A stretch of DNA of 64,000 bases from Botryllus schlosseri (lineage: Eukaryota): positions 1 through 64,000 of the forward strand of contig CM119373.1 in NCBI GenBank assembly GCA_051294905.1, written 5' to 3'. Made by a program: the position numbers and the translations under genes. Positions 9,001 through 30,019 of this stretch are shown in pieces (positions within the stretch are counted from its first letter, which is position 1; every line of letters starts with the position of its first letter). The notes below the pieces were generated by a model. It saw only the letters and a list, made by a program, of their open reading frames with translations, did no database searches and had not been told where the DNA came from.

Positions 9001-12000
9001 CCAGACAACCACAGCGAAATTCGGGACCTCAAACAGTGTCACGGCCCCGTAATTGTCGGTCAAAATTCAAAAAATGGTCAAAAACCGTGTTTCGGCGGGT
9101 ACTGCTCCGTCGATATCGCTCCCTGTCCGTGTCGGAGACCCGTAAAAGAGGTCTGTCCCTGTTGTAGGCCCTGCACCAGACAACCACAGCGAAATTCGGG
9201 ACCTCAAACAGTGTCACGGCCACGTAGTTGTCGCGCAAAATTCAAAAAATGGTCAAAAACCGTGTTTCGGCGGGTACTGCTCCGTCGATATCGCTCCCTG
9301 TCCGTGTCGGAGACCCGTAAAAGAGTTCTGTCCCTGTCGTAGGCCCTGCACCAGACAACCACAGCGAAATTCGGGACCTCAAACAGTGTCACGGCCCCGT
9401 AGTTGTCGCGCAAAATTCAAAAAATGGTCAAAAACCGTGTTTCGGCGGGTACTGCTCCGTCGATATCGCTCCCTGTCCGTGTCGGAGACCCGTAAAAGAG
9501 GTCTGTCCCTGTTGTAGGCCCTGCACCAGACAACCACAGCGAAATTCAGGACCTCAAACAGTGTCACGGCCCCGTAGTTGTCGCGCAAAATTCATAAAAT
9601 GGTCAAAAACCGTGTTTCGGCGGGTACTGCTCCGTCGATATCGCTCCCTGTCCGTGTCGGAGACCCGTAAAAGAGGTCTGTCCCTGTTGTAGGCCCTGCA
9701 CCAGACAACCACAGCGAAATTCGGGACCTCAAACAGTGTCACGGCCCCGTAATTGTCGGTCAAAATTCAAAAAATGGTCAAAAACCGTGTTTCGGCGGGT
9801 ACTGCTCCGTCGATATCGCTCCCTGTCCGTGTCGGAGACCCGTAAAAGAGGTCTGTCCCTGTTGTAGGCCCTGCACCAGACAACCACAGCGAAATTCGGG
9901 ACCTCAAACAGTGTCACGGCCCCGTAATTGTCGGTCAAAATTCAAAAAATGGTCAAAAACCGTGTTTCGGCGGGTACTGCTATGTCGATATTGCTCCCTG
10001 TCCGTGTCGGAGACCCGTAAAAGAGGTCTGTCCCTGTTGTAGGCCCTGCACCAGACAACCACAGCGAAATTCAGGACCTCAAACAGTGTCACGGCCCCGT
10101 AGTTGTCGCGCAAAATTCAAAAAATGGTCAAAAACCGTGTTTCGGCGGGTACTGCTCCGTCGATATCGCTCCCTGTCCGTGTCGGAGACCCGTAAAAGAG
10201 GTCTGTCCCTGTTGTAGGCCCTGCACCAGACAACCACAGCGAAATTCGGGACCTCAAACAGTGTCACGGCCCCGTAGTTGTCGCGCAAAATTCAAAAAAT
10301 GGTCAAAAACCGTGTTTCGGCGGGTACTGCTCCGTCGATATCGCTCCCTGTCCGTGTCGGAGACCCGTAAAAGAGGTCTGTCCCTGTTGTAGGCCCTGCA
10401 CCAGACAACCACAGCGAAATTCGGGACCTCAAACAGTGTCACGGCCCCGTAGTTGTCGCGCAAAATTCAAAAAATGGTCAAAAACCGTGTTTCGGCGGGT
10501 ACTGCTCCGTCGATATCGCTCCCTGTCCGTGTCGGAGACCCGTAAAAGAGGTCTGTCCCTGTTGTAGGCCCTGCACCAGACAACCACAGCGAAATTCGGG
10601 ACCTCAAACAGTGTCACGGCCCCGTAATTGTCGCGCAAAATTCAAAAAATGGTCAAAAACCGTGTTTCGGCGGGTACTGCTCCGTCGATATCGCTCCCTG
10701 TCCGTGTCGGAGACCCGTAAAAGAGGTCTGTCCCTGTTGTAGGCCCTGCACCAGACAACCACAGCGAAATTCGGGACCTCAAACAGTGTCACGGCCACGT
10801 AGTTGTCGCGCAAAATTCAAAAAATGGTCAAAAACCGTGTTTCGGCGGGTACTGCTCCGTCGATATCGCTCCCTGTCCGTGTCGGAGACCCGTAAAAGAG
10901 TTCTGTCCCTGTCGTAGGCCCTGCACCAGACAACCACAGCGAAATTCGGGACCTCAAACAGTGTCACGGCCCCGTAGTTGTCGCGCAAAATTCAAAAAAT
11001 GGTCAAAAACCGTGTTTCGGCGGGTACTGCTCCGTCGATATCGCTCCCTGTCCGTGTCGGAGACCCGTAAAAGAGGTCTGTCCCTGTTGTAGGCCCTGCA
11101 CCAGACAACCACAGCGAAATTCAGGACCTCAAACAGTGTCACGGCCCCGTAGTTGTCGCGCAAAATTCAAAAAATGGTCAAAAACCGTGTTTCGGCGGGT
11201 ACTGCTCCGTCGATATCGCTCCCTGTCCGTGTCGGAGACCCGTAAAAGAGGTCTGTCCCTGTTGTAGGCCCTGCACCAGACAACCACAGCGAAATTCGGG
11301 ACCTCAAACAGTGTCACGGCCCCGTAATTGTCGGTCAAAATTCAAAAAATGGTCAAAAACCGTGTTTCGGCGGGTACTGCTCCGTCGATATCGCTCCCTG
11401 TCCGTGTCGGAGACCCGTAAAAGAGGTCTGTCCCTGTTGTAGGCCCTGCACCAGACAACCACAGCGAAATTCGGGACCTCAAACAGTGTCACGGCCCCGT
11501 AATTGTCGGTCAAAATTCAAAAAATGGTCAAAAACCGTGTTTCGGCGGGTACTGCTATGTCGATATTGCTCCCTGTCCGTGTCGGAGACCCGTAAAAGAG
11601 GTCTGTCCCTGTTGTAGGCCCTGCACCAGACAACCACAGCGAAATTCAGGACCTCAAACAGTGTCACGGCCCCGTAGTTGTCGCGCAAAATTCAAAAAAT
11701 GGTCAAAAACCGTGTTTCGGCGGGTACTGCTCCGTCGATATCGCTCCCTGTCCGTGTCGGAGACCCGTAAAAGAGGTCTGTCCCTGTTGTAGGCCCTGCA
11801 CCAGACAACCACAGCGAAATTCGGGACCTCAAACAGTGTCACGGCCCCGTAGTTGTCGCGCAAAATTCAAAAAATGGTCAAAAACCGTGTTTCGGCGGGT
11901 ACTGCTCCGTCGATATCGCTCCCTGTCCGTGTCGGAGACCCGTAAAAGAGGTCTGTCCCTGTTGTAGGCCCTGCACCAGACAACCACAGCGAAATTCGGG

Positions 12001-14346
12001 ACCTCAAACAGTGTCACGGCCCCGTAGTTGTCGCGCAAAATTCAAAAAATGGTCAAAAACCGTGTTTCGGCGGGTACTGCTCCGTCGATATCGCTCCCTG
12101 TCCGTGTCGGAGACCCGTAAAAGAGGTCTGTCCCTGTTGTAGGCCCTGCACCAGACAACCACAGCGAAATTCGGGACCTCAAACAGTGTCACGGCCCCGT
12201 AATTGTCGCGCAAAATTCAAAAAATGGTCAAAAACCGTGTTTCGGCGGGTACTGCTCCGTCGATATCGCTCCCTGTCCGTGTCGGAGACCCGTAAAAGAG
12301 GTCTGTCCCTGTTGTAGGCCCTGCACCAGACAACCACAGCGAAATTCGGGACCTCAAACAGTGTCACGGCCCCGTAATTGTCGGTCAAAATTCAAAAAAT
12401 GGTCAAAAACCGTGTTTCGGCGGGTACTGCTCCGTCGATATCGCTCCCTGTATGTGTCGGAGACCCGTAAAAGAGGTCTGTCCCTGTTGTAGGCCCTGCA
12501 CCAGACAACCACAGCGAAATTCGGGACCTCAAACAGTGTCACGGCCCCGTAGTTGTCGCGCAAAATTCAAAAAATGGTCAAAAACCGTGTTTCGGCGGGT
12601 ACTGCTCCGTCGATATCGCTCCCTGTCCGTGTCGGAGACCCGTAAAAGAGGTCTGTCCCTGTTGTAGGCCCTGCACCAGACAACCACAGCGAAATTCGGG
12701 ACCTCAAACAGTGTCACGGCCCCGTAGTTGTCGCGCAAAATTCAAAAAATGGTCAAAAACCGTGTTTCGGCGGGTACTGCTCCGTCGATATCGCTCCCTG
12801 TCCGTGTCGGAGACCCGTAAAAGAGGTCTGTCCCTGTTGTAGGCCCTGCACCAGACAACCACAGCGAAATTCGGGACCTCAAACAGTGTCACGGCCCCGT
12901 AATTGTCGGTCAAAATTCAAAAAATGGTCAAAAACCGTGTTTCGGCGGGTACTGCTCCGTCGATATCGCTCCCTGTCCGTGTCGGAGACCCGTAAAAGAG
13001 GTCTGTCCCTGTTGTAGGCCCTGCACCAGACAACCACAGCGAAATTCAGGACCTCAAACAGTGTCACGGCCCCGTAGTTGTCGCGCAAAATTCAAAAAAT
13101 GGTCAAAAACCGTGTTTCGGCGGGTACTGCTCCGTCGATATCGCTCCCTGTCCGTGTCGGAGACCCGTAAAAGAGGTCTGTCCCTGTTGTAGGCCCTGCA
13201 CCAGACAACCACAGCGAAATTCGGGACCTCAAACAGTGTCACGGCCCCGTAGTTGTCGCGCAAAATTCAAAAAATGGTCAAAAACCGTGTTTCGGCGGGT
13301 ACTGCTCCGTCGATATCGCTCCCTGTCCGTGTCGGAGACCCGTAAAAGAGGTCTGTCCCTGTTGTAGGCCCTGCACCAGACAACCACAGCGAAATTCGGG
13401 ACCTCAAACAGTGTCACGGCCCCGTAATTGTCGGTCAAAATTCAAAAAATGGTCAAAAACCGTGTTTCGGCGGGTACTGCTCCGTCGATATCGCTCCCTG
13501 TCCGTGTCGGAGACCCGTAAAAGAGGTCTGTCCCTGTTGTAGGCCCTGCACCAGACAACCACAGCGAAATTCGGGACCTCAAACAGTGTCACGGCCCCGT
13601 AGTTGTCGCGCAAAATTCAAAAAATGGTCAAAAACCGTGTTTCGGCGGGTACTGCTCCGTCGATATCGCTCCCTGTCCGTGTCGGAGACCCGTAAAAGAG
13701 GTCTGTCCCTGTTGTAGGCCCTGCACCAGACAACCACAGCGAAATTCGGGACCTCAAACAGTGTCACGGCCCCGTAGTTGTCGCGCAAAATTCAAAAAAT
13801 GGTCAAAAACCGTGTTTCGGCGGGTACTGCTCCGTCGATATCGCTCCCTGTCCGTGTCGGAGACCCGTAAAAGAGGTCTGTCCCTGTTGTAGGCCCTGCA
13901 CCAGACAACCACAGCGAAATTCGGGACCTCAAACAGTGTCACGGCCCCGTAATTGTCGGTCAAAATTCAAAAAATGGTCAAAAACCGTGTTTCGGCGGGT
14001 ACTGCTCCGTCGATATCGCTCCCTGTCCGTGTCGGAGACCCGTAAAAGAGGTCTGTCCCTGTTGTAGGCCCTGCACCAGACAACCACAGCGAAATTCGGG
14101 ACCTCAAACAGTGTCACGGCCCCGTAGTTGTCGCGCAAAATTCAAAAAATGGTCAAAAACCGTGTTTCGGCGGGTACTGCTCCGTCGATATCGCTCCCTG
14201 TCCGTGTCGGAGACCCGTAAAAGAGGTCTGTCCCTGTTGTAGGCCCTGCACCAGACAACCACAGCGAAATTCGGGACCTCAAACAGTGTCACGGCCCCGT
14301 AATTGTCGGTCAAAATTCAAAAAATGGTCAAAAACCGTGTTTCGGC
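1..14346. repeat. 175-bp tandem satellite array, about 82 near-identical units, continuing off the left edge
   Basis: Unit (..gtttcggcgggtactgctccgtcgatatcgctccctgtccgtgtcggagacccgtaaaagagg..) recurs every 175 bp, with occasional 174/176-bp steps from 1-bp indels. Two main variants: gtagttgtcgcgc and gtaattgtcggtc. The last unit switches to the diverged variant at ~14347. Confidence 0.99.
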
Positions 14347-14513
14347 GCGTACTGCTCCGTCGATATAGCAAGTAGTACGTGTACGAGACCCGTAAAAGAG
14401 GTTTGCGCGTCTTGTAGGCCTAGCACACGACAACTGCAGCGAGATTTAGGACCTTAAACAGTGTCAACAACCGCCCAAAATGAATAAAAATCGTCAAAAA
14501 ACGTGTTTCGGCG

Positions 14514-14800
14514 GGCCCCAGACCGATTTTCGAGAAAAAAAATTTCGGGCATTCTATGACGTAATAATGACCCGGGAATCTCTTTTTTCAGAAAATTCTC
14601 GCCGCGCGCTCATATGCTATTGAACTGTCGCGTTAGAAGGACGTTTGGAGTGGATTACCGTGCATCAAGAACATTTATTGGAATCTCAAGTCACCGGGTG
14701 AGTGAAAATTTCTTCTAGTTGTGAAATCCACATACTTTAGCGTGGCGCGATTAGGCAAAATAGCTTTTCCCGAGTCCAAAATCGTTGGATTTTGGGCCAT
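14514..14800 (+). repeat. ~280-bp internal block of the element; other copies at ~15823-16110, 20535-20795, 21865-22125, 22864-23150 and 24173-24460
   Basis: Shared sequence cagaccgattttcg..atgacgt(a/g)ataatgacccg..ctcgccgcgcgctcatatgct..ggaatctcaagtc..gggtgagtgaaaat..ccgagtccaaaa. Confidence 0.9.
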
Positions 14801-14859
14801 AACTAGTCCCCGTAACTCGTCTCTATCTCAGCGCCTGTAACTTCGATTTGGTCAATTTC

Positions 14860-15700
14860 TTTTTTATTGCATTCGTCTCTCGGCGCCAATTCGATCGCGG
14901 GGTCGTTTTTTCGTCTGCTGCATACACGAGCCCAGATATTGGACGAAACGTCCCGAAAAAAATCCCTATACTTAACACGGCGCGATTTTGCGGAAGTCCA
15001 ACTTCCCATAAGAATGTATGGACCGGTTTTCGTGCCGTATCTACTCTCTGGGACGGCCCAGAATGACGAACGACGCACCGACGTGTTGGTATTCGCGCCC
15101 CGGTCACATCGGTGTGCGGCTCGACGATGTCCGACCTGAGGGAGGACCGCTATCGGCCTCTAAAGTAGCCTTTGATCAGCCGTGACGTCACAGTCGGCGG
15201 AAATCCCATAAGGAATGCCTGGTACGGTTTTCGGCCATTATCTCCTCTCTGGTACGGCCCAGAATGACGAACGACACATCTCTGTGTTCCTAAGCGGGCG
15301 CTGGTCACGTCGATGTGCGGCTCGATGGGTGTGGGTCACGTGTGGCGGCGCTAGAGAGTCGCGAATATCGGATTTCTGAGGGGGTTACAGGCCCGTAGCG
15401 TTCCTCCCCGAGCACTGACATGCACGAACGACCCATCGTTGCGTTCTGCTCCTCGAGGCGGTCATTCGAACACCAAATTCGACATCGTGGGCTCTCGTGG
15501 GGGGTCGCCAGAGCCCCCCCCCATTTTACTTCAACCGGGAATATGTCAGCTCCGGTACATCCGATTCTGGAAATTTCTTTTTCCGCGCATTCTTCTCTTG
15601 GCGCCAATTCGATCGCGGGGTCGTTTGTGTGTCTGCTACATACACGAGCCAAGCTTTTAGACGAAACGTCCCGAAAAAATCCCTATACTTTAACATGGGG
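14860..15700 (+). repeat. CpG-rich, internally duplicated region upstream of the recombinase gene
   Basis: ggcgccaattcgatcgcggggtcg..gacgaaacgtcccgaaaaaatccctatact occurs at ~14880-14972 and ~15600-15690. cccataag..ggcccagaatgacgaacgac occurs at ~15005-15075 and ~15205-15275. Same layout in copy 2 at +8350. Confidence 0.8.
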
Positions 15701-15988
15701 CCGGAGGTCGAAAAAAGTTGAAGTCTTTGACCAATTTATTTTCGTTCTAAACCGCCTACGCGTGTTCCTAAGACTCTCTAGAGACGCGTGGTGAAGAAAA
15801 TATCACGATCCCTCAACTTTTCCGGGCCCCAGACCGATTTTCGGGAAAAAAAATTTCGGGCCCTCTATGACGTAATAATGACCCGAGAATATCTTTTTCC
15901 AGATAATTCTCGCCGCGCGCTCATATGCTAGTGAACTGTCGCGTTAGGAGGACGTTTGGAGAGTATTACCGTGCATCAAGAACATATA

Positions 15989-18597
15989 ATGGAATCTCAA
16001 GTCGTCGGGTGAGTGAAAATGTCTTCTAATTTCGAAATCCCTATGCTTTAGCGTGGCGCGATTCGGCGAAATAGCTTTTACCGAGTCCAAAATCGCTGGT
16101 TTTCGGTCGATAACTCTCTCTGCTCCGGTAACTTCAACATGGCGCGATTTTTAATATTTCTATTGTAGCGATCCCGTTGCAATTCGACCCACGAAAAGAA
16201 TCAGACTCGACAGGTGTCAAGTTTGCCATATACAAACCAAAGGTCATAGAACGAGGCATCTTCGTAACGTTCATAAGTGGTCCGTGGACAGAATTAAAGA
16301 GTAAGATCGCCGTTGGCTTATTTATAACAAGCAGAAGCAAATAAATATTACGTGTCGCAGGTCTGCTCGCTACTTGCGCGAGCCCAGGCAAGACATAAAG
16401 CGATGTCGTCCACGGTCTTGGTGTGGTCTCTGCTCTAGATCAGTAGCCACGGCATATATAGCAACCCACTGGAGGATTATTCATTCCGATAAAATACGCG
16501 ACGGCTTCGGGATAGGTTGCGAGACCTACCAGGAAAACTTTAAAAAGTTGACCTTCGAGTCCGACTTTTCAAGCGTGAGTAACTCTGATGGTAATGTGTC
16601 ACTTTTTTACCGAAATAATGCAAATCCGTTTATTACAGCTACTCTCCCTGTACGAAAGGCATCGTCAAGTGCAAGCGCTCGACGAAGCCAACACCAAAAT
16701 GGTCGTCAGCAAACTGAAATCAGTTTTCAAGAAGTTTGTGGTTGACGAGCCGGAGCAATTAGTCACGTACATTTGTAACGCCGACGGGAAACTGTCCGCG
16801 AGCACTATTTTCAACACCCTGACGTCGCTAAAGGGATTTCTTGAATTTGCGCGCATGCAGCATCCGGCATTGTTGGAAAAAGTGGTTTCACCGGACAACC
16901 AACTGAGAGCCCTACAAATCATCGCGACGTACTCTAGAGCGACCAATAAAAGAAGAAAGCGGCAGCACGAGAAACGTTTGTCTGTCGACATGGACATCAT
17001 CAATAAAAATTGGCCGAATATCAAAAGGTTCGTGCTAAGATTAAAATATCGCCCAGTTTCAAGTTTATTATGCGTGTTTTTTTAGAATGATCAAAAGCGA
17101 AACGTTTAAAAGAGACCTCCATCAACCGTTAACAGACGAAAACGTCCGGGATTGTTTGGCGGCGACAATAATTCAAGTTGGTCTCTCGAGCGGCACGAGA
17201 TTATCATATTTCCGTAGAGTGACCGGATACGAGCTTAGCCACGCCGTCCGTTCCGTGAACGATCCCGAAATGTTAGTCATACAGGTGAACCACAACAAGT
17301 GCCTGTCGAGTCAGGGTTTGTTGGTTATGACGCAAAAAGACTATGACCGATTCAAACACGTAGGTGTTACGAAGATATGAACGTGTAATGGAGCGGTCTA
17401 AAACCTCTTTTCGATTTCAGATTTGCAAGCAAACCAATCCAGACTTGGATTTGTCACGGGAAGAAGTCGCGTTGCGAAACTCGAACGGCAAGCCGTTCCA
17501 AAATTTATCGGTTTGTGTCGTGGAATACCTCAGTACCCACGAAGTCAGCCTGACGTACCAGCACCTCCGTAAAATAGTCGCCACGATGGCGAGTTCGCTA
17601 GACGACATTGGACGATATCATGTTGCGATGTCATCGTCGCACAGCACGGAGGTCGCGAGTCGACACTATGACGGGATAGGCAGGACCAAGAGGGCGGCTG
17701 CCGGGGCGATTCTATGCAGAGAAATGCTCCGCAAAGCCGTGAACAGTACACACGATGACTTATATGCGGAGTTGGCCGCGTCAAAAGCTCCCCCAAATGA
17801 AGGTATGTAAAGCCCTATAAAATTATAACGTCATATATCTGACCGCAACTGTTTATTAAGGATCATTTGAATCACCGAACCCAACCCCGACCACAGTTCA
17901 ACCTGAGCTGCCAACAAAGGACGATATCACTAATGATACGCAATCAAACGGAGCTAATTCGGAAACTCTATTCGCTACGGACCGGGACACACGGATCGTC
18001 AGACCGACCCCAACCCCGACCACAGTTCAACCAGAGCTGCAAACAGAGGACGATAGCACTTTTCACTCCGAAAATGATACCCAATCAAACGGAGCTAATT
18101 CGGAAACTCTATTCGCTACGGACCGGGACACACGGATCGTCAGACCGACCCCAACCCCGAACACAGTTCAACCAGAGCTGCAAACAGAGGACGATAGCAC
18201 TTTTCACTCCGAAAATGATACCCAATCAAACGGAGCTAATTCGGAAACTCTATTCGCTACGGACCGGGACACACGGATCGTCACAAATGATGGTAATCTA
18301 TTTGCTATTACCGTCCAAATTCCATTTCTAATCATATTCAAACCCGCAGATATTGACGTCGAGGAAATAGCGAACACGATATGCAACCGTCAGAGAGGGA
18401 CCAAGACCACGTTGACGAACGAGCTAGTGGAGAAATTGATCAAAGACTCTCGATTGCATGCGTTTCATCACGATCGTGGACCTCTACTGAGCAGGATAGT
18501 TCACGAATATAAATCCGAATGCTATTTAACCTTTCAGCAAATGCGTTCAAAAATGAGATTGATCAAGTCGGTTTTAAAGACAAATAAACCTGGATGA
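15989..18597 (+). CDS. Spliced tyrosine recombinase (phage-integrase fold, Crypton-like) with two N-terminal C2H2-like zinc fingers; ~696 aa, reading frame intact
   Basis: Hand-built exons: 15989-16008, 16169-16300, 16361-16574, 16639-17027, 17086-17359, 17421-17802, 17861-18292, 18350-18597 (2091 nt, all GT-AG, phases compatible, no internal stop). Motifs: CQVC..HLRNVH and CGLC..HWRIIH fingers; LSASTIFNTLTSLKGFLEF core-binding helix; SSGTR (Arg 17198); VNHNK (Lys 17297); YQHLRK (Arg 17568); VAMSSSHSTEVASRHY (His 17640, Tyr 17667). Exon 1 is the least certain. Confidence 0.85.
17877..18282 (+). repeat. 141-bp coding minisatellite (~3 units) giving a 47-aa Pro/Thr/acidic repeat in exon 7
   Basis: agaccgaccccaacc recurs at 18001 and 18142. 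Translates as RPTPTPTTVQPELQTEDDSTFHSENDTQSNGANSETLFATDRDTRIV. Confidence 0.95.
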
Positions 18598-18796
18598 ACG
18601 GAGTTTTGTTCTTTGACTCTTGATTTTGATCCCCAAAATCGTGAGAACGAACGTGGCGCCTACCATGATACGCCTAAGCCCCTTTCACAATGTCGAGAAC
18701 GCGACGGACGTAAACTCAATACGAAATTTATGTCCGGCTCCACAACCTCACGATGACGGGCATGGATGATGAGATCCCGGACACGTTTTAACGCAA

Positions 18797-18814
18797 AATA
18801 AAGGCGCCAATAAA
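18797..18814 (+). promoter_or_regulatory. Paired AATAAA polyadenylation signals at the extreme right end of the element (also present in copy 2)
   Basis: AATAAA at 18797-18802 and 18809-18814, about 200 nt after the stop codon and 2 nt before the telomeric tract. Confidence 0.55.
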
Positions 18815-18816
18815 GT

Positions 18817-18879
18817 CCCTAACCCTAACCCTAACCCTAACCCTAACCCTAACCCTAACCCTAACCCTAACCCTAACCC
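18817..18879 (+). repeat. Perfect telomeric tract (CCCTAA)10 CCC between the two element copies
   Basis: Read directly: ccctaa x10 at 18817-18876, then ccc. Confidence 0.98.
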
Positions 18880-19131
18880 CACGAGTCCGTCGGTGTGCGG
18901 GAAATCGAAATCGGAGAAAAAAAATTTTCGACCTAGTCGGATTTTTTCATAAGTTTGAAATCCCCATACTTTAACACGGGGCCGAGATCGTAAAAAAGTT
19001 GAAGTCCGAAAAAAATTTTTTTCACCTAAAAACCACACGGGCGCGTTCCCCGCACTGTTTGAAGACGCCCCGCAAAGGAATTATCCCGATCCGACAAACG
19101 GATCGGCCTCCAGAGCCGGTCAAAGTTCCGA

Positions 19132-21814
19132 TTTCGGCGGGTACTGCTCCGTCGATATCGCTCCCTGTCCGTGTCGGAGACCCGTAAAAGAGGTCTGTCC
19201 CTGTTGTAGGCCCTGCACCAGACAACCACAGCGAAATTCAGGACCTCAAACAGTGTCACGGCCCCGTAATTGTCGGTCAAAATTCAAAAAATGGTCAAAA
19301 ACCGTGTTTCGGCGGGTACTGCTCCGTCGATATCGCTCCCTGTCCGTGTCGGAGACCCGTAAAAGAGGTCTGTCCCTGTTGTAGGCCCTGCACCAGACAA
19401 CCACAGCGAAATTCAGGACCTCAAACAGTGTCACGGCCCCGTAATTGTCGGTCAAAATTCAAAAAATGGTCAAAAACCGTGTTTCGGCGGGTACTGCTCC
19501 GTCGATATCGCTCCCTGTCCGTTTCGGAGACCCGTAAAAGAGGTCTGTCCCTGTTGTAGGCCCTGCACCAGACAACCACAGCGAAATTCAGGACCTCAAA
19601 CAGTGTCACGGCCCCGTAATTGTCGGTCAAAATTCAAAAAATGGTCAAAAACCGTGTTTCGGCGGGTACTGCTCCGTCGATATCGCTCCCTGTCCGTGTC
19701 GGAGACCCGTAAAAGAGGTCTGTCCCTGTTGTAGGCCCTGCACCAGACAACCACAGCGAAATTCAGGACCTCAAACAGTGTCACGGCCCCGTAATTGTCG
19801 GTCAAAATTCAAAAAATGGTCAAAAACCGTGTTTCGGCGGGTACTGCTCCGTCGATATCGCTCCCTGTCCGTGTCGGAGACCCGTAAAAGAGGTCTGTCC
19901 CTGTTGTAGGCCCTGCACCAGACAACCACAGCGAAATTCAGGACCTCAAACAGTGTCACGGCCCCGTAATTGTCGGTCAAAATTCAAAAAATGGTCAAAA
20001 ACGGTGTTTCGGCGGGTACTGCTCCGTCGATATCGCTCTCTGTCCGTGTCGGAGACCCGTAAAAGAGGTCTGTACCTGTTGTAGGCCCTGCACCAGACAA
20101 CCACAGCGAAATTCAGGACCTCAAACAGTGTCACGGCCCCGTAATTGTCGGTCAAAATTCAAAAAATGGTCAAAAACCGTGTTTCGGCGGGTACTGCTCC
20201 GTCGATATCGCTCCCTGTCCGTGTCGGAGACCCGTAAAAGAGGTCTGTCCCTGTTGTAGGCCCTGCACCAGACAACCACAGCGAAATTCAGGACCTCAAA
20301 CAGTGTCACGGCCCCGTAATTGTCGGTCAAAATTCAAAAAATGGTCAAAAACCGTGTTTCGGCGGGTACTGCTCCGTCGATATCGCTCCCTGTCCGTGTC
20401 GGAGACCCGTAAAAGAGGTCTGTCTCTGTTGTAGGCCCTGCACCAGACAACCACAGCGAGATTTAGGACCTTAAACAGTGTCACGGCTCCGCAATGTCGG
20501 TCAAAAACCCAAAAAAATTCAAAAAAATCGGCACAGACCGATTTTCGAGAAAAAAATTTTCGGGCCCTCTATGACGTGATAATGACCCGGGAATATCTTT
20601 TTTCAGAAAATTCTCGCCGCGCGCTCATATGCTATTGAACTGTCGCGTTGGGAGGACGTTGTGAGAGGATTACCGTGCATCAGGAACATTTATTGGAATC
20701 TCAAGTCACCGGGTGAGTGAAAATTTCTTCTAGTTGTGAAATCCACATACTTTAGCGTGGCGCGATTAGGCGAAATAGCTTTTACCGAGTCCAAAACCGT
20801 GTTTCGGCGCGTACTGCTCCGTCGATATAGCAAGTAGTACGTGTCCGAGACCCGTAAAAGAGGTTTGCGCGTCTTGTAGGCCTAGCACACGACATCCACA
20901 GCGAGATTCAGACCTTAAACAATGTCACGGCTCCGCAATAATCGGTCAAAAACCGCCCAAAATGCAAAAAAATCGTCCAAAACCGTGTTTCGGCGCGTAC
21001 TGCTCCGTCGATATAGCAAGTAGTACGTGTCCGAGACCCGTAAAAGAGGTTTGCGCGTCTTGTACGCCTAGCACACGACATCCACAGCGAGATTCAGACC
21101 TTAAACAGTGTCACGGCCCCGTAATTGTCGGTCAAAATTCAAAAAATGGTCAAAAACCGTGTTTCGGCGGGTACTGCTCCGTCGATATCGCTCCCTGTCC
21201 GTGTCGGAGACCCGTAAAAGAGGTCTGTACCTGTTGTAGGCCCTGCACCAGACAACCACAGCGAAATTAAGGACCTCAAACAGTGTCACGGCCCCGTAAT
21301 TGTCGGTCAAAATTCAAAAAATGGTCAAAAACCGTGTTTCGGCGGGTACTGCTCCGTCGATATCGCTCCCTGTCCGTGTCGGAGACCCGTAAAAGAGGTC
21401 TGTCCCTGTTGTAGGCCCTGCACCAGACAACCACAGCGAAATTCAGGACCTCAAACAGTGTCACGGCCCCGTAATTGTCGGTCAAAATTCAAAAAATGGT
21501 CAAAAACCGTGTTTCGGCGGGTACTGCTCCGTCGATATCGCTCCCTGTCCGTGTCGGAGACCCGTAAAAGAGGTCTGTCCCTGTTGTAGGCCCTGCACCA
21601 GACAACCACAGCGAAATTCAGGACCTCAAATAGTGTCACGGCCCCGTAATTGTCGGTCAAAATTCAAAAAATGGTCAAAAACCGTGTTTCGGCGGGTACT
21701 GCTCCGTCGATATCGCTCCCTGTCCGTGTCGGAGACCCGTAAAAGAGGTCTGTCTCTGTTGTAGGCCCTGCACCAGACAACCACAGCGAGATTTAGGACC
21801 TTAAACAGTGTCAC
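19132..21814. repeat. Short 175-bp satellite arrays inside copy 2 (~19132-20484 and ~21103-21814), interrupted by the 280-bp block and 186-bp variant units
   Basis: Same monomer as 1-14346, nearly all of the aattcagg + gtaattgtcggtc type. Confidence 0.95.
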
Positions 21815-22121
21815 GGCTCCGCAATGTCGGTCAAAAACCCAAAAAAATTCAAAAAAATCGGCACAGACCGATTTTCGAGAAAAATATTTTCGGGCCCTCT
21901 ATGACGTGATAATGACCCGGGAATATCTTTTTTCAGAAAATTCTCGCCGCGCGCTCATATGCTATTGAACTGTCGCGTTGGGAGGACGTTGTGAGAGGAT
22001 TACCGTGCATCAGGAACATTTATTGGAATCTCAAGTCACCGGGTGAGTGAAAATTTCTTCTAGTTGTGAAATGCACATACTTTAGCGTGGCGCGATTAGG
22101 CGAAATAGCTTTTACCGAGTC

Positions 22122-22864
22122 CAAAACCGTGTTTCGGCGCGTACTGCTCCGTCGATATAGGAAGTAGTACGTGTCCGAGACCCGTAAAAGAGGTTTGCGC
22201 GTCTTGTAGGCCTAGCACACGACATCCACAGCGAGATTCAGACCTTAAACAGTGTCACGGCTCCGCAATAATCGGTCAAAAACCGCCCAAAATGCAAAAA
22301 AATCGTCCAAAACCGTGTTTCGGCGCGTACTGCTCCGTCGATATAGCAAGTAGTACGTGTCCGAGACCCGTAAAAGAGGTTTGCGCGTCTTGTAGGCCTA
22401 GCACACGACATCCGCAGCGAGATTCAGACCTTAAACAGTGTCACGGCTCCGCAATAATCGGTCAAAAACCGCCCAAAATGCAAAAAAATCGTCCAAAACC
22501 GTGTTTCGGCGCGTACTGCTCCGTCGATATAGCAAGTAGTACGTGTCCGAGACCCGTAAAAGAGGTTTGCGCGACTTGTAGGCCTAGCACACGACATCCA
22601 CAGCGAGATTCAGACCTTAAACAGTGTCACGGCTCCGCAATAATCGGTCAAAAACCACCAAAAATGCAAAAAAATCGTCAAAAACCGTGTTTCGGCGCGT
22701 ACTGCTCCGTCGATATAGCAAGTAGTACGTGTACGAGACCCGTAAAAGAGGTTTGCGCGTCTTGTAGGCCTAGCACACGACAACTGCAGCGAGATTTAGG
22801 ACCTTAAACAGTGTCAACAACCGCCCAAAATGAATAAAAATCGTCAAAAAACGTGTTTCGGCGG
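22122..22864. repeat. Diverged 186-bp satellite variant, ~4 units (also ~20792-21102 and ~14347-14513)
   Basis: gtttcggcgcgtactgctccgtcgatatag(c/g)aagtagtacg recurs at 22131, 22317 and 22503. The ORF track shows the matching 62-aa period. Confidence 0.92.
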
Positions 22865-24338
22865 GCCCCAGACCGATTTTCGAGAAAAAAAATTTCGGGC
22901 ATTCTATGACGTAATAATGACCCGGGAATCTCTTTTTTCAGAAAATTCTCGCCGCGCGCTCATATGCTATTGAACTGTCGCGTTAGAAGGACGTTTGGAG
23001 TGGATTACCGTGCATCAAGAACATTTATTGGAATCTCAAGTCACCGGGTGAGTGAAAATTTCTTCTAGTTGTGAAATCCACATACTTTAGCGTGGCGCGA
23101 TTAGGCAAAATAGCTTTTCCCGAGTCCAAAATCGTTGGATTTTGGGCCATAACTAGTCCCCGTAACTCGTCTCTATCTCAGCGCCTGTAACTTCGATTTG
23201 GTCAATTTCTTTTTTATTGCATTCATCTCTCGGCGCCAATTCGATCGCGGGGTCGTTTGTTCGTCTGCTGCATACACGAGCCCAGATATTGGACGAAACG
23301 TCCCGAAAAAAATCCCTATACTTAACACGGCGCGATTTTGCGGAAGTCCAACTTCCCAGAAGAATGCATGGACCGGTTTTCGTGCCGTATCTACTCTCTG
23401 GGACGGCCCAGAATGACGAACGACGCACCGACGTGTTGGTATTCGCGCCCCGGTCACATCGGTGTGCGGCTCGACGATGTCCGACCTGAGGGAGGACCGC
23501 TATCGGCCTCTAAAGTAGCCTTTGATCAGCCGTGACGTCACAGTCGGCGGAAATCCCATAAGGAATGCCTGGTACGGTTTTCGGCCATTATCTCCTCTCT
23601 GGTACGGCCCAGAATGACGAACGACACATCTCTGTGTTCCTAAGCGGGCGCTGGTCACGTCGATGTGCGGCTCGATGGGTGTGGGTCACGTGTGGCGGCG
23701 CTAGAGAGTCGCGAATATCGGATTTCTGAGGGGGTTACAGGCCCGTAGCGTTCCTCCCCGAGCACTGACATGCACGAACGACCCATCGTTGCGTTCTGCT
23801 CCTCGAGGCGGTCATTCGAACACCAAATTCGACATCGTGGACCCTCGTGGGGGGTCGCCAAAGCCCCCCCCCATTTTACTTCAACCGGAGATATCTCAGC
23901 TCCGGTACATCCGATTCTGGAAATTTCTTTTTCCGCGCATTCTTCTCTTGGCGCCAATTCGATCGCGGGGTCGTTTGTGTGTCTGCTACATACACGAGCC
24001 AAGCTTTTAGACGAAACGTCCCGAAAAAATCCCTATACTTCAACATGGGGCCGGAGGTCGGAAAAAGTTGAAGTCTTTGACCAATTTATTTTCGTTCTAA
24101 ACCGCCTAGGCGTGTTCCTAGGACTCTCTAGAGACGCGTGGTGAAGAAAATATCACGATCCCTCAACTTTTCCGGGCCCCAGACCGATTTTCGGGGAAAA
24201 AAATTTCGGGCCCTCTATGACGTAATAATGACCCGAGAATATCTTTTTCCAGATAATTCTCGCCGCGCGCTCATATGCTAGTGAACTGTCGCGTTAGGAG
24301 GACGTTTGGAGAGTATTACCGTGCATCAAGAACATATA

Positions 24339-27240
24339 ATGGAATCTCAAGTCGTCGGGTGAGTGAAAATTTCTTCTAATTTCGAAATCCCTATGCTTTA
24401 GCGTGGCGCGATTCGGCGAAATAGCTTTTACCGAGTCCAAAATCGTTGGTTTTCGGTCCATAACTCTCTCTGCTCCGGTAACTTCAACATGGCGCGATTT
24501 TTAATATTTCTATTGCAGCGATCCCGTTGCAATTCGACCCACGAAAAGAATCAGACTCGACAGGTGTCAAGTTTGCCATATACAAACCAAAGGTCATAGA
24601 ACGAGGCATATTCGTAACGTTCATAAGTGGTCCGTGGACAGAATTAAAGAGTAAGATCGTTGTTGGCTTATTTATAACAACCAGAAGCAAATAAATATTA
24701 CGTGTCGCAGGTCTGCTCGCTACTTGCGCGAGCCCAGGCAAGACATAAAGCGAGGTCGTCCACGGTCTTGGTGTGGTCTCTGCTCCAGATCAGTAGCCAC
24801 GGCATACATAGCAAACCACTGAAGGATTATTCATTCCGATAAAATACGCGACGGCTTCGGGATAGGTTGCGAGACCTACCAGGAAAACTTTAAAAAGTTG
24901 ACCTTCGAGTCCGACTTTTCAAGCGTGAGTAACTCTGATGGTAATGTGTCATTTTTTTACCGAAATAATGTAGATCCGTTTATTACAGCTACTCTCCCTG
25001 TACGAAAGGCATCGCCAAGTGCAAGCGCTCGACGAAGCCAACACCAAAATGGTCGTCAGCAAACTAAAATCAGTTTTCAAGCAGTATGTGGTTGACGAGC
25101 CGGAACAATTAGTCACGTACATTTCTAACGCCGACGGGACACTGTCTGCGAGCACTATTTTCAACACCCTGACGTCGCTAAAGGGATTTCTTGAATTTGC
25201 GCGTATGCACCATCCGGCATTGTTGGAAAAAGTGGTTTCACCGGTCAAACAACTGAGAGCCATACAAATCATCGCGACGTACTCTAGAGCGACCAATAAA
25301 AGAAGAAAGCCGCAGCACGAGAAACGTTTATCTCTCGACATGGACGTCATCAATAAAAATTGGCCGAATATCAAAAGGTTCGTGCTAAGACTAAAATATC
25401 GCCCAGTTTCAAGTTTAATATGCGTGTTTTTTTAGAATGATCAAAAGCGAAACGTTTAAAAGAGACCTCCATCAACCGTTAACAGACGAAAACGTCCGGG
25501 ATTGTTTGGCGTTGACAATAATTCAAGTTGGTCTCTCGAGCGGCACGAGATTATCATATTTCCGTAGAGTGACCGGATACGAGCTTAGCCACGCCGTCCG
25601 TTCCGTGAACGATCCCGAAATGTTAGTCATACAGGTGAACCACAACAAGTGCCTGTCGAGTCAGGGTTTATTGGTTATGACTCAAAAAGACTATGACCGA
25701 TTCAAACAGGTAGGTGTTACGAAGATATGAACGTGTAATGGAGCGGTCTAGAACCTCTTTTCGATTTCAGATTTGCAAGCAAACCAATCCGGACTTGGAT
25801 TTGTCACGGGAAGAAGTCGCGTTGCGAAACTCGAACGGCAAGCCGTTCCAAAATTTATCGGTTTGTGTCGTGGAATACCTCAGTACCCACGAAGTCAGCC
25901 TAACGTACCAGCACCTCCGTAAAATAGTCGCCACGATGGCGAGTTCGCTAGACGACATTGGACGATATCATGTTGCGATGTCATCGTCGCACAGCACGGA
26001 GGTCGCCAGTCGACACTATGACGGGATAGGCAGGACCAAGAGGGCGGCTGCCGGGGCGATTCTATGCAGAGAAATGCTCCGCAAAGCCGCGAACAGTACA
26101 CACGATAACTTATATGCGGAGTTGGCCGCGTCAAAAGCTCCCCCAAATGAAGGTATGTAAAGCCCTATAAAATTATAACGTCATATATCTGACCGGAACT
26201 GTTTATTAAGGATCATTTGAATCGCCGAACCCAACCCCGACCACAGTTCAACCAGAGCTGCCAACAAAGGACGATATCACTTTACGCACCGAAAATGATA
26301 CGCAATCAAACGGAGCTAATTCGGAAACTCTATTCGCTACGGACCGGGACACACGGATCGTCAGACCGACCCCAGCCCCGACCACAGTTCAACCAGAGCT
26401 GCAAACAGAGGACGATAGCCCTTTTCACACCGAAAATGATACGCAATCAAACGGAGATAATTTGGAAACTCTATTCGCTACGGACCGGGACACACGGATC
26501 GTCAGACCGACCCCAACCCCGACCACAGTTCAACCAGAGCTGCAAACAGAGGACGATAGCACTTTTCACACCGAAAATGATACGCAATCAAACGGAGATA
26601 ATTCGGAAACTCTATTCGCTACGGACCGGGACACACGGATCGTCAGACCGACCCCAACCCCGACCACAGTTCAACCAGAGCTGCAAACAGAGGTCGATAG
26701 CCCTTTTCACACCGAAAATGATACGCAATCAAACGGAGATAATTCGGAAACTCTATTCGCTACGGACCGGGACACACGGATCGTCAGACCGACCCCAACC
26801 CCGACCACAGTTCAACCAGAGCTGCAAACAGAGGACGATAGCACTTTTCACACCGAAAATGATACGCAATCAAACGGAGATAATTCGGAAACTCTATTCG
26901 CTACGGACCGGGACACACGGATCGTCACAAATGAGGGTAATCTATTTGCTATTACCGTCCAAATTCAATTCTAATCATATTCAAACCCGCAGATATTGAC
27001 GTCGAGGAAATAGCGAATACGATATGCAACCGTCAGAGAGGGACCAAGACCACGTTGACAAACGAGCTAGTGGAGAAATTGATCAAAGACTCTCGATTGC
27101 ATGCGTTTTATCACGATCGTGGACCTCTACTGAGCAGGATAGTTCACGAATATAAATCCGAATGCTATTTAACCTTTCAGCAAATGCGTTCAAAAATGAG
27201 ATTGATCAAGTCGTTTTTAAAGACAAATAAACGTGGATGA
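24339..27240 (+). pseudogene. Second copy of the zinc-finger tyrosine recombinase gene with a premature stop in exon 3
   Basis: Same exon structure and splice sites as copy 1. TGG(Trp)>TGA at 24820-24822 in the second zinc finger (cac tga agg vs cac tgg agg). Catalytic R/K/R/H/Y residues unchanged. Confidence 0.8.
26227..26926 (+). repeat. 141-bp coding minisatellite, ~5 units in copy 2
   Basis: Same unit as 17877-18282. The exon stays in frame (26211-26936, 726 nt). Confidence 0.95.
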
Positions 27241-28590
27241 ACGGAGTTTTGTTCTTTGACTCTTGATTTTGATCCCCAAAATCTTGAGAACGAGCGTGGC
27301 GCCTACCATGATACGCCTAAGCCCCTTTCACAATGTCGAGAACGCGACGCACGTAAACTCAATACGAAATTTATGTCCGGCTCCACAACCTCACGATGAC
27401 GGGCATGGATGATGAGATCCCGGACACGTTTTAACGCAAAATAAAGGCGCCAATAAAGTCCCTAACCTATAATTGTGCCAGTTCAAATGTCCGCTAGCTG
27501 CAAAACTATAACACGATAGTTTTACGATGTCCCGATCGACCCGATGCATTTGTACAGTCGCATGGTGACTACAACTAAATGTACAGCAACTATGCAAAGT
27601 GCGGCAACAATTGTGTTCGAATATTTTAAAATGTGATTTTTTTCGTGGCAGGCATGAATTCACAATAGTAAATCACATTTCCCAGATGTGTGTGGAATGT
27701 CAGTTTGCAAGGTCCCGTCAAATAAAGCCTACTCGGAAATACATTGAATTCCCCTATTATTGGTGCCTGCGGCCCGCGGCGCCATCAAAAAGTAGGAAAT
27801 TGGCCCGCTAGCATATTTGAGTTTGAGACCTCTGTTTTAGATATACATAAAAGTTCTATTAATAGAATCTTTCAATATGATCGAAATTCTTAGCCGTCCT
27901 AAAACGAAGGTATATTAGGCTATGCTAAACACTGCGCTCGACGTAATGGAGCTGCAGAATTTCGTACTAAGACCAACTGACGTGGTTGCGAGTCATCAAT
28001 TCTTAACCCTTTGCGAAAATATAGAAGTCACAATGAGTAAAGCGATGGTGAAGTTAACGCACCGTAAATTTCGCAATGGCTTAAGAAACGCGGAAGCTCG
28101 AGCGTAACGGATCTTATGCAAAATTCTTTCAATTTATATGTTTGTCATATTTTGGAATCGGGAGAGGATTTTCACACTAACAGTACTGGAGTTGCCAAAA
28201 AGGAAGACATTTAGGCGTCCTAGGACGACAATTTGAAAAACCTGAAAAAGGAGGACAAATCCGCCTAAAGCAGTTCGTATGTTAACCATAATTGAATTGC
28301 AGCACCATTACGGTGGCTTTCTGAAGACGATGTCTATGGCAAATTTTTTTTCAACCTGCGAGTTAATTTGGGACCTCATAATTTTTATAGCGCAGAGCCC
28401 CTTTAAGAATAAGCAGCTAACAAGTTATGATCGAACGAGGTCCGAGGTTCATTGGTACCCCTGAATATTCTGATGATGTAGAGAAATTTATGCATCTGAA
28501 CACAATTGGTGCATAAATTAATGCTTCAATTAATACTCGAATAATATAATAACTTATTATAAATTTGCCCTTTGGAGCTAAGCTTGTTAA

Positions 28591-29344
28591 CGGTGCACTG
28601 CACTCTAAAAACTATGTGGTCTCAAAGTGAAGGGCGAAACGAGATAATTTTTTAGGCCACAGCCATTTTCTTCAGAACGCCACCGTAATGGAGCTGCAAT
28701 TTATTGAATTTTTTACAGGGGAATCATGCTCCAGCAGTCACGCAGAAATCGAACTTCATATAGTTGTCTTCTGTAGTTGACTGAACGGTTGCCCGACATA
28801 TGAGCATGCGACACAATGAAAAACGACAGTTCAGCATGGAACACATCAGCATGCGTCACTTCAGCATGTGACTGGATAACCCAAAAACGTACCCTAACCC
28901 GAAACATAGCCTAACCTAACCTAACCTAGCCTAACCTAACCTAAACCCTAACCCTAACCCAACCATAAACCTATAACCTAACCTACCCCTAACCCGTAAT
29001 TTAACCCACATGCTCATGTGTCGCATGCCAAATTGTCGCATGCCGAAGTGTCGCATGCTGTAATGTCGCATGCTCATATGCCCACGGACCGACTGAACAT
29101 CTTCCGTTGCACGTGGTGTTTAAACGACCTTTGCTTGTATGACATATTTCCTTTATAACATCGGCTGACAACGATATAAAGTTCGATTTCTGTGTGACTG
29201 CTGGAGCATGATTCCCCTGTAAAAAATTCAATAAATTGCAGCTCCTTTACGGTGGCATTGTGAAGAATATGGCTGTGGCCTAAAACTTTTTCTCGTTTCG
29301 CCCTTCAATTTGAGACGACATCATTTTTAGAGAACAGTGCCCCT
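28591..29344. mobile_element. Non-autonomous DNA element with ~165-bp TIRs, Kolobok-like (TTAA flanks)
   Basis: ttaa|cggtgcactgcactctaaaa.. pairs with ..ttttagagaacagtgcccct|ttaa. Arms ~28591-28757 and ~29178-29344 are reverse complements. Confidence 0.7.
28786..29091. mobile_element. Nested MITE with CGG..CCG ends, 6-bp TSD and a degenerate cctaa/ccctaa core
   Basis: ACTGAA at 28780-28785 and 29092-29097. catatgagcatgcgaca pairs with tgtcgcatgctcatatg. 15-bp subterminal repeats. Confidence 0.75.
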
Positions 29345-29392
29345 TTAAACTATTCGCCGATTCAACTACATTTATATCTTTAGTATGAGAAG

Positions 29393-29892
29393 CAGGGTCG
29401 TAACCAAGTCACAAGGCTCCGAGTCACAACTCAATGTCACTTTTATAGGATTGACTCGAATCAAGTCGAGTCATTTTCAATTCACCACCGAGTCGAGTCC
29501 GATTCTAAGTCAACAAGTAGAGGTTCGAGTCCGATTCATGGTGTTATGACTCAAGTCTGAGTCCAAGTCATTGTGATGACTGCTCAGTTTCCAGTTCCAG
29601 TTCTGTTGAAACCATTTTTTATGACTGTTTGGTGATACCGAATTATTCGCATTTATAATACACTGATTTTCCTTTTAGTAGTTTCTGGTAGCATTTTTTA
29701 GTGCCAGTACGAATAGAAGAAATGCCAATAGTGTGGTTATTTTAGTATTATTCAAAATTACGGTGGAAATGTCTTTCTTGGCCATCTGAGTCTCGAGTCA
29801 TGCGCAATGACTCAAGTCGAGTCAATACACAAATTGTTTCGAGTCGTTTTTGTGTTTTGAGAAATTAATGACTCGAGTCAAGTCGAGTCAAG
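29393..29892. mobile_element. Truncated gactcgagtc-rich hAT-type MITE, same family as 61178-61817
   Basis: Starts cagggtcgtaac, has multiple gactcgagtc/gagtcaagtc motifs, and resembles the reverse complement of 61178-61817. Confidence 0.65.
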
Positions 29893-30019
29893 AGAAAGTC
29901 ATTACATTATGAGAAGTCTCAAATAAGCATTTCTAGCTGAAGTTGGTCATGTGCTCTGGATTCGCACATGAGCATTTAGCAATATCATTTAAAGCTAACA
30001 TATTGTTTTAATTCCAGGC

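Follow-up and report, generated by a model that had tools for sequence, protein, structure and literature searches.

We analysed the first 64 kb of contig C3 of Botryllus schlosseri (CM119373.1, + strand; 38.36 Mb, in an assembly of 495.5 Mb and 219 contigs), hereafter the window, in which two copies of a block carrying a predicted tyrosine recombinase (YR) gene lie end to end, each ending on telomere repeats. An earlier note on this DNA had described the blocks as a candidate mobile element that lacks reverse transcriptase (RT), targets the telomere repeat and is stacked head-to-tail. Coordinates are window positions on the + strand, other contigs of the same assembly are named C2, C4, C9, C30 and so on, and element junctions are taken as given in the assembled contigs. 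The features are as follows.

2..14466, + strand: 175-bp satellite array, distal (5') part of copy 1 (Tandem Repeats Finder, 82.6 units, 98% matches)
14312..18816, + strand: copy 1, part colinear with copy 2, with 3' terminus ..GGCGCCAATAAAGT (alignment)
15989..18597, + strand: predicted recombinase gene, copy 1 (seven GT..AG introns; spliced contigs match introns 2-6)
17932..18283, + strand: in-frame 141-bp tandem repeat in exon 7 of copy 1 (47 aa per unit, 2.5 units)
18655..18668, + strand: subterminal motif GGCGCC-N-ACCATGA, 162 bp from the 3' end (motif scan)
18817..18879, + strand: perfect interstitial telomere tract of CCCTAA x10.5 that separates copy 1 (3' end) from the healed 5' break of copy 2
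18880..19131, + strand: 5' stump of copy 2 (252 bp), part of a 540-bp repeat that is longer elsewhere (genome comparison)
19132..22816, + strand: satellite part of copy 2, 3.7 kb (175-bp units, 7.9 + 5.0; 186-bp variant units, 3.7)
22661..27459, + strand: copy 2, part colinear with copy 1, with terminus ..GGCGCCAATAAAGT (alignment)
24339..27240, + strand: predicted recombinase gene, copy 2, a pseudogene (same 8-exon model, premature stop)
27460..27467, + strand: remnant telomere tract CCCTAACC on the proximal side of copy 2 (sequence reading)

The telomere repeat of the organism is CCCTAA/TTAGGG; contig C9 begins with about 3.7 kb of CCCTAA. The window is the very start of its contig, which places a chromosome end to the left, as the note had deduced. 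The two copies are colinear: 14312-18283 aligns with 22661-26645 at 97.8% identity over 3985 columns, and 17874-18824 with 26506-27467 at 96.1%. Copy 1 terminates in ..AATAAAGT at 18816 and is followed directly by CCCTAA; copy 2 has the same terminus at 27459. The tract of 10.5 CCCTAA repeats that joins them (18817-18879) had no such match in 100 shuffles. Copy 2 is bounded by CCCTAACC on either side, in the distal tract and at 27460-27467, after which unrelated DNA follows proximally. All of this agrees with the earlier description, except for the start of the unit, which had been placed at 14330: copy 1 runs on leftwards as the 175-bp satellite and, since this array reaches the start of the contig, its true 5' end is not assembled in the window. 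The last units of the array resemble the beginning of the colinear part (84-85% identity). The colinear part of copy 1 holds a single 186-bp variant satellite unit, a pair of promoter-like/first-exon modules (14512-14804 and 15823-16115, 90% alike), the gene and the 3' terminus. The satellite of copy 2 is broken by two copies of the promoter-like module, of about 290 bp each (20527-20819 and 21857-22149).

The only gene modelled contains introns, as had been stated, with eight exons and seven GT-AG introns. We found no RT domain and no other enzyme domain with Pfam in 12 further open frames of 14330-27467, out of 42 frames of at least 100 aa, the remaining 30 being gene exons, satellite frames or the same frames in copy 2. 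No inverted repeat of at least 200 nt occurs in 14000-30000, in line with the reported lack of terminal inverted repeats (TIRs) and long terminal repeats (LTRs). An Rfam scan covering the window and two subtelomeric loci matched no family.

Searching the genome with the terminal 14-mer GGCGCCAATAAAGT revealed 21 exact matches, 20 of which are element ends (two in C3, eleven in C30, and one each in C16, C132, C22, C4, C114, C2 and C11); the last, at C4:25,196,952, is a chance site with no homology. CCCT(AA)n follows directly, and in the same register, at 20/20 of these ends. Beyond the tracts, we distinguished eight downstream contexts: the stump of copy 2, a dispersed repeat, GGCCCGAAAACC.. 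of a C9-like subtelomere, TGACATGCG.., a 22-bp minisatellite (C22, C11), a 340-bp satellite (C4), a 230-bp satellite (C114) and another satellite (C2). Because these flanks differ, the copies do not represent a plain segmental duplication with shared host flanks, and the association with telomere repeats proposed for the window extends to all 3' ends in the genome. The proximal tracts measure 0.67, 1.33, 1.5, 2.2, 2.5, 4.8, 10.5, 13.7, 31.7 and about 77 repeats. Two subfamilies share the same 3' junction, with genes 88% identical and 3' parts 77% identical; their last 40 bp agree at 37/40 positions, versus 30/40 in the next two 40-bp windows. The junction lies 2 nt past the last AATAAA of the gene, and there is no A-tract at this point.

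The 5' junction of copy 2 in the window, (CCCTAA)10CCC|CACGAGTCC, had been taken for the second attachment (att) end. It is unique in the genome. In C11 and C30, homologous sequence runs on upstream of it (..CTACGGGCTCCCACGAGTCC..) within a 540-bp repeat; hence the 5' end of copy 2 is truncated and is not an att site. It represents a break at which telomerase added repeats, starting from a CCC/GGG microhomology. The true 5' terminus of the family lies outside the window and reads CCCT|TGACATGCG, found as ..CCCTAACCCT|TGACATGCG at C4, C2 and C114. The 576-bp unit that carries it (TGACATGCGTTTGG..) was traced downstream of the C30 junction and recurs at C4:3783, C2 and C114. At C4, positions 3601-3782 directly before it are CCCTAA throughout (at least 182 bp), and the terminus stands 3.8 kb from the first base of a 30.5-Mb contig. 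CCCT|TGACATGCGTTTGGTG has 16 matches (C2, C4, C114, C132 and twelve in C30), with at least two telomere repeats upstream in 4/16. Full-length blocks TGACATGCG....AATAAAGT measure 22.8 kb in C4, 15.7 kb in C2, 14.0 kb in C114 and 17.7 kb for the C30 unit, and CCCT flanks either terminus (..CCCTAACCCT|element|CCCTAACCC..). Their order is a 5' 576-bp region, satellite arrays (accompanied in one lineage by a broken ribosomal DNA (rDNA) unit), the recombinase gene and the 3' end. The 5' 576 bp are 98-99% identical between subfamilies whose genes are 88% identical, and C4, C2 and C114 hold near-identical whole blocks.

The 212 kb of contig C30 are made up of 17.7-kb units arranged head-to-tail. In 12 of the 13 full head-to-tail junctions of C30 and C132, the sequence is AATAAAGT-CCCT-TGACATGCG, with a single CCCT; the remaining one holds CCCTAA x31.7. 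The single-CCCT form is the junction predicted for a circle or concatemer, and the layout of the element agrees with recombination at CCCT between its joined ends and a telomere repeat, the outcome expected when a YR acts on a circle. Each C30 unit contains 18S, 5.8S and 28S genes on the opposite strand, the 28S being internally deleted, since its match spans 1.7 kb of a 3401-position model. The element's 18S is 100% identical within the C30, C132 and C16 copies. A second rDNA type, with an 18S 96% identical to that of the element, is also present near other contig ends and forms its own array of at least 18 units on C28; the rDNA of the element thus gives the impression of cargo or a relic and not of the main rRNA locus. 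The coexistence in one genome of two rDNA types whose 18S genes are only 96% alike (C30:124001-134000; C28, C13, C5, C22, C16) is in itself an unusual divergence.

A motif, GGCG[AC]C-N0-4-A[TC]CATGA, recurs on one strand at both ends of the element, seven times in the 5' 576 bp and once at 162 bp from the 3' end. The 64-kb window has two matches, both at the 3' position of the copies, and 50 shuffles had none. We regard GGCGCC..ATCATGA as a candidate binding motif. On C11, a short derivative has kept repeats of the 5' region, a single satellite unit and precisely the sequence that runs from the motif to the 3' end, with the usual CCCTAACCC junction. The shared end motif, this deleted derivative and the conserved last 40 bp look like the ends of a transposon.

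Eight exons make up the gene in copy 1 (15989-16008, 16169-16300, 16361-16574, 16639-17027, 17086-17359, 17421-17802, 17861-18292 and 18350-18597). The seven introns, all GT-AG, are 57-160 nt long, in a genome whose introns are GT-AG and about 60 nt. The frame of copy 1 is intact over 696 codons. Copy 2 has a premature TGA at 24820-24822, where copy 1 codes for Trp, and we class it as a pseudogene because of this one stop; it also has five units of the 141-bp repeat (26225-26927) versus 2.5 in copy 1. Joints in contigs of the public runs X11 and X17, which are RNA by automatic guess, match introns 2, 3, 4, 5 and 6, three of them being reported as GT..AG; introns 1 and 7 lie outside the coverage of the joints. 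The DNA run X1 has none of these joints. The gene is therefore expressed, with five of its seven introns confirmed. The raw RNA run X24 yielded 4 reads only, all with adaptor-like loose ends, and no RNA run is listed among the holders of contigs covering the gene stretch. Contigs of 20 other public runs (9 studies) carry parts of the gene.

We projected the gene model onto 10 other copies, two fragmentary interior copies being unsuitable for projection. The frame is open, with every splice site preserved, in 9/10, including C16, C132, two C30 units, C22, C114, C4 and C2 (those of C114, C4 and C2 end one codon early), and all seven introns are present in the 10. Between subfamilies, the ratio of nonsynonymous to synonymous divergence (dN/dS) is 0.14-0.21 at a dS of 0.15-0.24, indicating purifying selection on the gene. 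The neighbouring copies C3-1 and C3-2 are nearest relatives (dS 0.043). A separate observation is that introns are less diverged than exons between subfamilies (C3-1 vs C22, window 15989-17802: 18/402 intron mismatches, dS 0.22), which may be a small-sample effect or patchy gene conversion.

Direct reading of the protein revealed two C2H2-like fingers, C-x2-C-x10-H-x4-H in exon 2 and C-x2-C-x11-H-x4-H in exon 3, both kept in three paralog lineages. Pfam gave weak hints, zf-C2H2_ZN292 (E 0.022) and, on exon 4, Phage_int_SAM_1 (E 0.051, below cut-off), and no match to Phage_integrase (PF00589) or a related family at E up to 1 with the 7 exon peptides and 4 read-through frames. Exons 5-6 contain GTR, a Lys at the turn of a predicted beta-hairpin, HLR, SSSHS and HY(DG). 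These are kept in all aligned paralogs, down to 32-47% identity, and in P0001-P0005 where covered. The spacing from R to H is 24 and from H to Y 9, values that we take to be close to those of XerD; the first His lies 2 rather than 3 residues before the second Arg.

For modelling of the fold, the input was the C9 paralog, whose intron 5 is open in frame (exon 5, intron and exon 6 read through), within an alignment, A1, of 18 rows (the C9 paralog plus 17 exon peptides and database matches). The AlphaFold model from A1 reached a mean predicted local distance difference test (pLDDT) of 57.9 and a predicted template modelling score (pTM) of 0.53; the single-sequence model, with a pLDDT of 32, was useless. 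Comparing the A1 model with the Protein Data Bank (PDB) by Foldseek returned, down to rank 34, only tyrosine recombinases, topoisomerases IB or a repressor of that fold (best E 5e-3, TM 0.43-0.49). VIA-align against 48,161 chains placed members of the tyrosine recombinase/topoisomerase IB superfamily at all of ranks 1-22 (Z 8.9-5.2), the Crypton-derived QRICH1 coming at rank 25 (Z 5.1), below bacterial recombinases. Among the viral models of BFVD, the best 50 rows were mostly integrases or topoisomerases, and these were generic integrases. We accept from the model that the predicted catalytic half has a tyrosine-recombinase/topoisomerase-IB fold, a fold supported rather than proven because the model is of middling quality. 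The YR identity assigned by the earlier note is supported by the modelled fold and by R, K, R, H and Y near their expected spacing, with no Pfam match.

Sequence searches of the PDB gave 0 matches with exon 6 and with the profile of A1. A search for homologous proteins with exon 6 and A1 found none at threshold among longer proteins, which is weak evidence only. With phmmer over 1.84 billion representatives we obtained five matches, all short and unnamed, in which the same motifs are kept. In a language-model comparison, the neighbours of one exon belong to unnamed clusters that come largely from Cnidaria and Echinodermata; this serves as a lead only.

Within the genome, exon 6 has 56 matches, comprising lineages at 57-59% and about 45% aa identity, many with stops, and a cluster on C3 at 6.6-9.1 Mb; this points to a transposon-like history of the family. 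Two interior copies (C3:8.99 Mb and C16:213 kb) are fragments starting from intron 1 and have no telomere repeats. A distance of 4 kb separates the C9-type paralog (59% aa) from a true telomere; it is on the other strand and has no junction with the repeats. Around a paralog of about 45% identity, C1:13.165-13.181 Mb and C5:20.759-20.775 Mb share a duplication of at least 13 kb at 99.6% identity. Its left edge is sharp (..|GGTACGTCGTATTGG), it contains no further long open frame, and it may represent a second kind of large element within the recombinase family.

Several known systems resemble the element in part. Yeast Y' elements and fungal telomere-linked-helicase (TLH) repeats form gene-bearing blocks between the terminal telomere and a short internal tract. 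The present block likewise lies between telomere and internal tract, occupies some ends only, has tandem copies split by telomere repeats and is spread among ends; it differs in having a recombinase and not a helicase (none was found in the frames tested) and in having both ends fixed on the repeat, with a 4-nt overlap. Telomere-specific retroelements include the Penelope-like Athena/Terminon elements, TRAS/SART and HeT-A/TART, and Penelope-like elements retain introns. As in these, the 3' end of our element faces the centromere and joins the repeats, copies are stacked, a 5'-truncated copy is capped by telomerase and, as in the Penelope-like ones, introns are present; unlike in these, no RT was found in the tested frames, the 5' end is fixed, and the unit encloses satellites that are not transcribed as well as opposite-strand rDNA. 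Cryptons are said to be DNA elements with a YR as their only enzyme, with introns, without RT, TIR or LTR, and with short terminal direct repeats. The element shares these traits, the direct repeat at both ends being CCCT, and differs in carrying kilobases of satellite. Thus the label Crypton-like, given by the earlier note, suits its lifestyle, whereas a sequence link was not found (no Pfam match, DUF3504 included, and the QRICH1 result given above). We know of no Crypton that targets telomere repeats, and a literature search for a telomere-targeting Crypton or a non-viral, RT-less recombinase element specific for telomere repeats returned only papers on nimaviruses. PMC9977147 mentions Cryptons and subtelomeres and does not link them. 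TATE, VIPER and DIRS (PMC6681497) also use a YR, and TATE is associated with telomeres; they encode RT and RNase H, neither of which we found here in the tested frames.

The closest precedent, by analogy, is found in the endogenous nimaviruses of crustaceans, as described in two papers. These viruses are flanked by TAACC telomere repeats, with reads spanning end, tract and end (Kawato et al. 2023, PMC10871703); all of them encode a distinct recombinase family with C2H2 and SAM-like domains, and multi-exon relatives of these recombinases target 28S rDNA (PMC10871703). A homology-driven integration was left open (Bao et al. 2020, PMC7016691). The earlier note named only retroelements and Y' as known telomere-specific elements; RT-less, recombinase-bearing nimaviruses are already described (PMC10871703, PMC7016691). 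Shared with the element are an RT-less DNA form with host telomere repeats at both ends; runs of end, telomere tract and end, which represent concatemers or episomes in the viruses; an architecture of C2H2, SAM-like and recombinase domains, seen here as weak Pfam hints and a modelled catalytic fold; multi-exon recombinases and a tie to rDNA among relatives; canonical catalytic residues that are only partly recognisable; and a mode of integration for which both site-specific and homology-driven routes are entertained. The nimaviruses described are 280-400 kb long with about 100 or more genes and reside in arthropods with TAACC telomeres, unlike the present 14-23 kb with one gene plus satellites and TTAGGG. 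The likeness is one of architecture and layout. Pfam found no domain of viral genes in the other tested frames of the window copies, and apart from the gene the C30 unit consists of rDNA and repeats. As a kind, integrating DNA with a recombinase and a specificity for telomeres is already known from nimaviruses, and the Y'-like layout from fungi.

We propose, with a confidence that stops slightly short of an even chance, that the blocks are telomere-embedded, RT-less recombinase elements moved by their own enzyme through a circle. The window would then be the outermost chromosome end, held by two such elements stacked on each other. The element would excise or replicate in circular or concatemeric form, its ends meeting at AATAAAGT-CCCT-TGACATGCG; the recombinase that it encodes, composed of two zinc fingers, a SAM-like domain and the catalytic domain, would join that junction to the CCCT of a telomere repeat; and the outcome would be an element inside the telomere with its gene pointing to the centromere. 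In the window, copy 2 would have lost its outer part, telomerase would have capped the break, and copy 1 would have been added onto the new short telomere. We favour this proposal because of the fixed 3' end, the fixed 5' end, the CCCT at both sides, the single-CCCT head-to-tail junctions, the shared end motif, the conserved last 40 bp, the selected and expressed gene, the recombinase fold and the nimavirus precedent. A fuller version is offered tentatively, as possible but somewhat improbable as a whole: the element would be a small DNA transposon of cellular rather than viral kind and without an RT. The YR that it encodes would use TTAGGG (crossover core CCCT) as att site, and the element would pass through a circle and carry satellites and rDNA as cargo.

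A number of observations weigh against movement by the recombinase. Firstly, the head-to-tail junction proves nothing alone, since it is present as chromosomal tandem DNA and no circle was observed; slippage could shrink a telomere tract to one CCCT, and array homogenisation could spread that form. Secondly, the proximal tracts are mostly very short, as predicted by host capture of eroded telomeres and not by random insertion into kilobase telomeres such as the ~3.7 kb of C9. Thirdly, the near-identity of the 5' 576 bp (98-99%) versus the genes (88%) indicates ongoing homologous exchange at the ends, and the neighbouring copies C3-1 and C3-2 are each other's closest relatives. Fourthly, the more diverged paralogs examined are not joined to telomere repeats. 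Finally, the protein itself has no Pfam integrase match, its His is offset by one before the second Arg, and the AlphaFold model is of middling confidence.

The main rival explanation is the spread of a Y'-like subtelomeric block through host recombination, which we consider quite possible, at less than an even chance and somewhat less likely than movement by the recombinase. A short or healed telomere would invade an interstitial CCCTAA tract at the proximal edge of the block, and break-induced replication would proceed to the tip of the donor, located on another end or on the sister chromatid. The junctions would be inherited, and the recombinase would be a passenger with some other benefit or a relic of the founding transposon. 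In agreement with this, 8/10 proximal tracts have at most 13.7 repeats, copy 1 is placed on a 10.5-repeat tract seeded at the break, and satellite lengths vary freely on the distal side, giving blocks of 14.0, 15.7, 17.7 and 22.8 kb between the same junctions. The homogenised 5' 576 bp, the close relationship of C3-1 and C3-2 and the near-identical whole blocks of C4, C2 and C114 are likewise expected. The same alternative was left open for nimaviruses in PMC7016691, where the homology-based telomere integration of herpesviruses is cited. Such a spread, however, leaves unexplained an intact, expressed and selected recombinase at nearly every end, as well as the shared end motif and the C11 deleted derivative, the extra conservation of the last 40 bp, a junction 2 nt past the last AATAAA and the single-CCCT head-to-tail junctions.

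Movement by the recombinase and spread by host homologous recombination are not mutually exclusive. The short proximal tracts favour host recombination; the joining by the recombinase and the existence of a circle are inferred. Of the earlier suggestion that TTAGGG is the att core of an RT-less element, the general association with telomere repeats is supported, movement by the recombinase is a proposal, and the 5' junction of the window is reassigned to a healed break.

An RT-less telomere retroelement in the style of Athena or HeT-A, whose transcript would end at its poly(A) site, pair with the G-rich overhang and be copied by an RT in trans, would explain the joining of the sense-strand 3' end to the distal end of the G strand, the junction 2 nt after AATAAA and the one 5'-truncated copy capped by telomere repeats. 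We nevertheless judge it very unlikely: the seven introns are kept in 10 projected copies though spliced RNA exists, kilobases of satellite and, in one lineage, opposite-strand rDNA lie upstream of the promoter and inside the unit, the junction has no A-tract, the 5' end is fixed at 4 telomere-flanked sites, and the frames tested contain no RT domain. An assembly artefact, in which misjoined repeats at contig ends produce telomere-like junctions, is hardly credible, since the same two junctions occur on 8 contigs with different flanks and parts of the gene occur in contigs of the 20 other public runs, even though C3 and C30 begin inside repeats and flipped terminal contigs are suggested by two copies (C16:22.24 Mb, C11:265 kb) that stand 0.27-0.4 Mb away from a scaffold end and point the 'wrong' way for the nearer one. 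The C16 copy (22.22-22.25 Mb) is followed by (CCCTAA)13.7 and a C9-like subtelomere, and the C11 copy lies at 264-267 kb; the two reversed copies may be flipped terminal contigs or old rearrangements.

Further features of the window concern its repeats. The DNA proximal to copy 2 (27468-29300) is a dispersed repeat with at least 11 other loci at 96-98% identity over query positions 1-1319. Since query position 1 is the start in every locus, the 8-bp telomere remnant adjoins exactly one terminus of this repeat. Its 134-nt inverted arms (28635-28768 and 29167-29300) enclose 15-bp repeats and a degenerate CCTAA/CCCTAA tract (28877-28994), and the DNA after its right end lacks telomere repeats. 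An open frame at 22109-22804, through the 186-bp satellite, gave a Pfam E1-N match (E 1.5e-8) in which none of the individual stretches passed; the repetitive sequence most likely produced it as an artefact. The promoter/first-exon modules, the 175/186-bp satellites, the 166-bp repeats (positions 1453-3134 of locus C30:124001-134000), the 540-bp repeats and spacer-like pieces beside the C9 telomere have short modules in common, in both orientations, e.g. ..CCTATGCTTTA... Subrepeats of an rDNA spacer may be the origin of the element's entire non-coding part.

The telomere-specific mobile elements known to date are retroelements or giant endogenous viruses, and Y'-type gene-bearing subtelomeric repeats, of unclear origin, are thought to be spread by host recombination. 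If our proposal is true, this would be the first such element outside the giant nimaviruses of crustaceans and a DNA-level counterpart of the telomere-specific retroelements. A compact block with one expressed and conserved recombinase gene and with both of its ends anchored in the telomere repeat offers a simple system for studying how a YR might use the telomere repeat as its target, and the predicted attachment junction and candidate binding motif are directly testable in vitro. The block also bears on how subtelomeres arise and on whether Y'-like elements descend from DNA transposons; in this organism, the element would build the outermost subtelomere.

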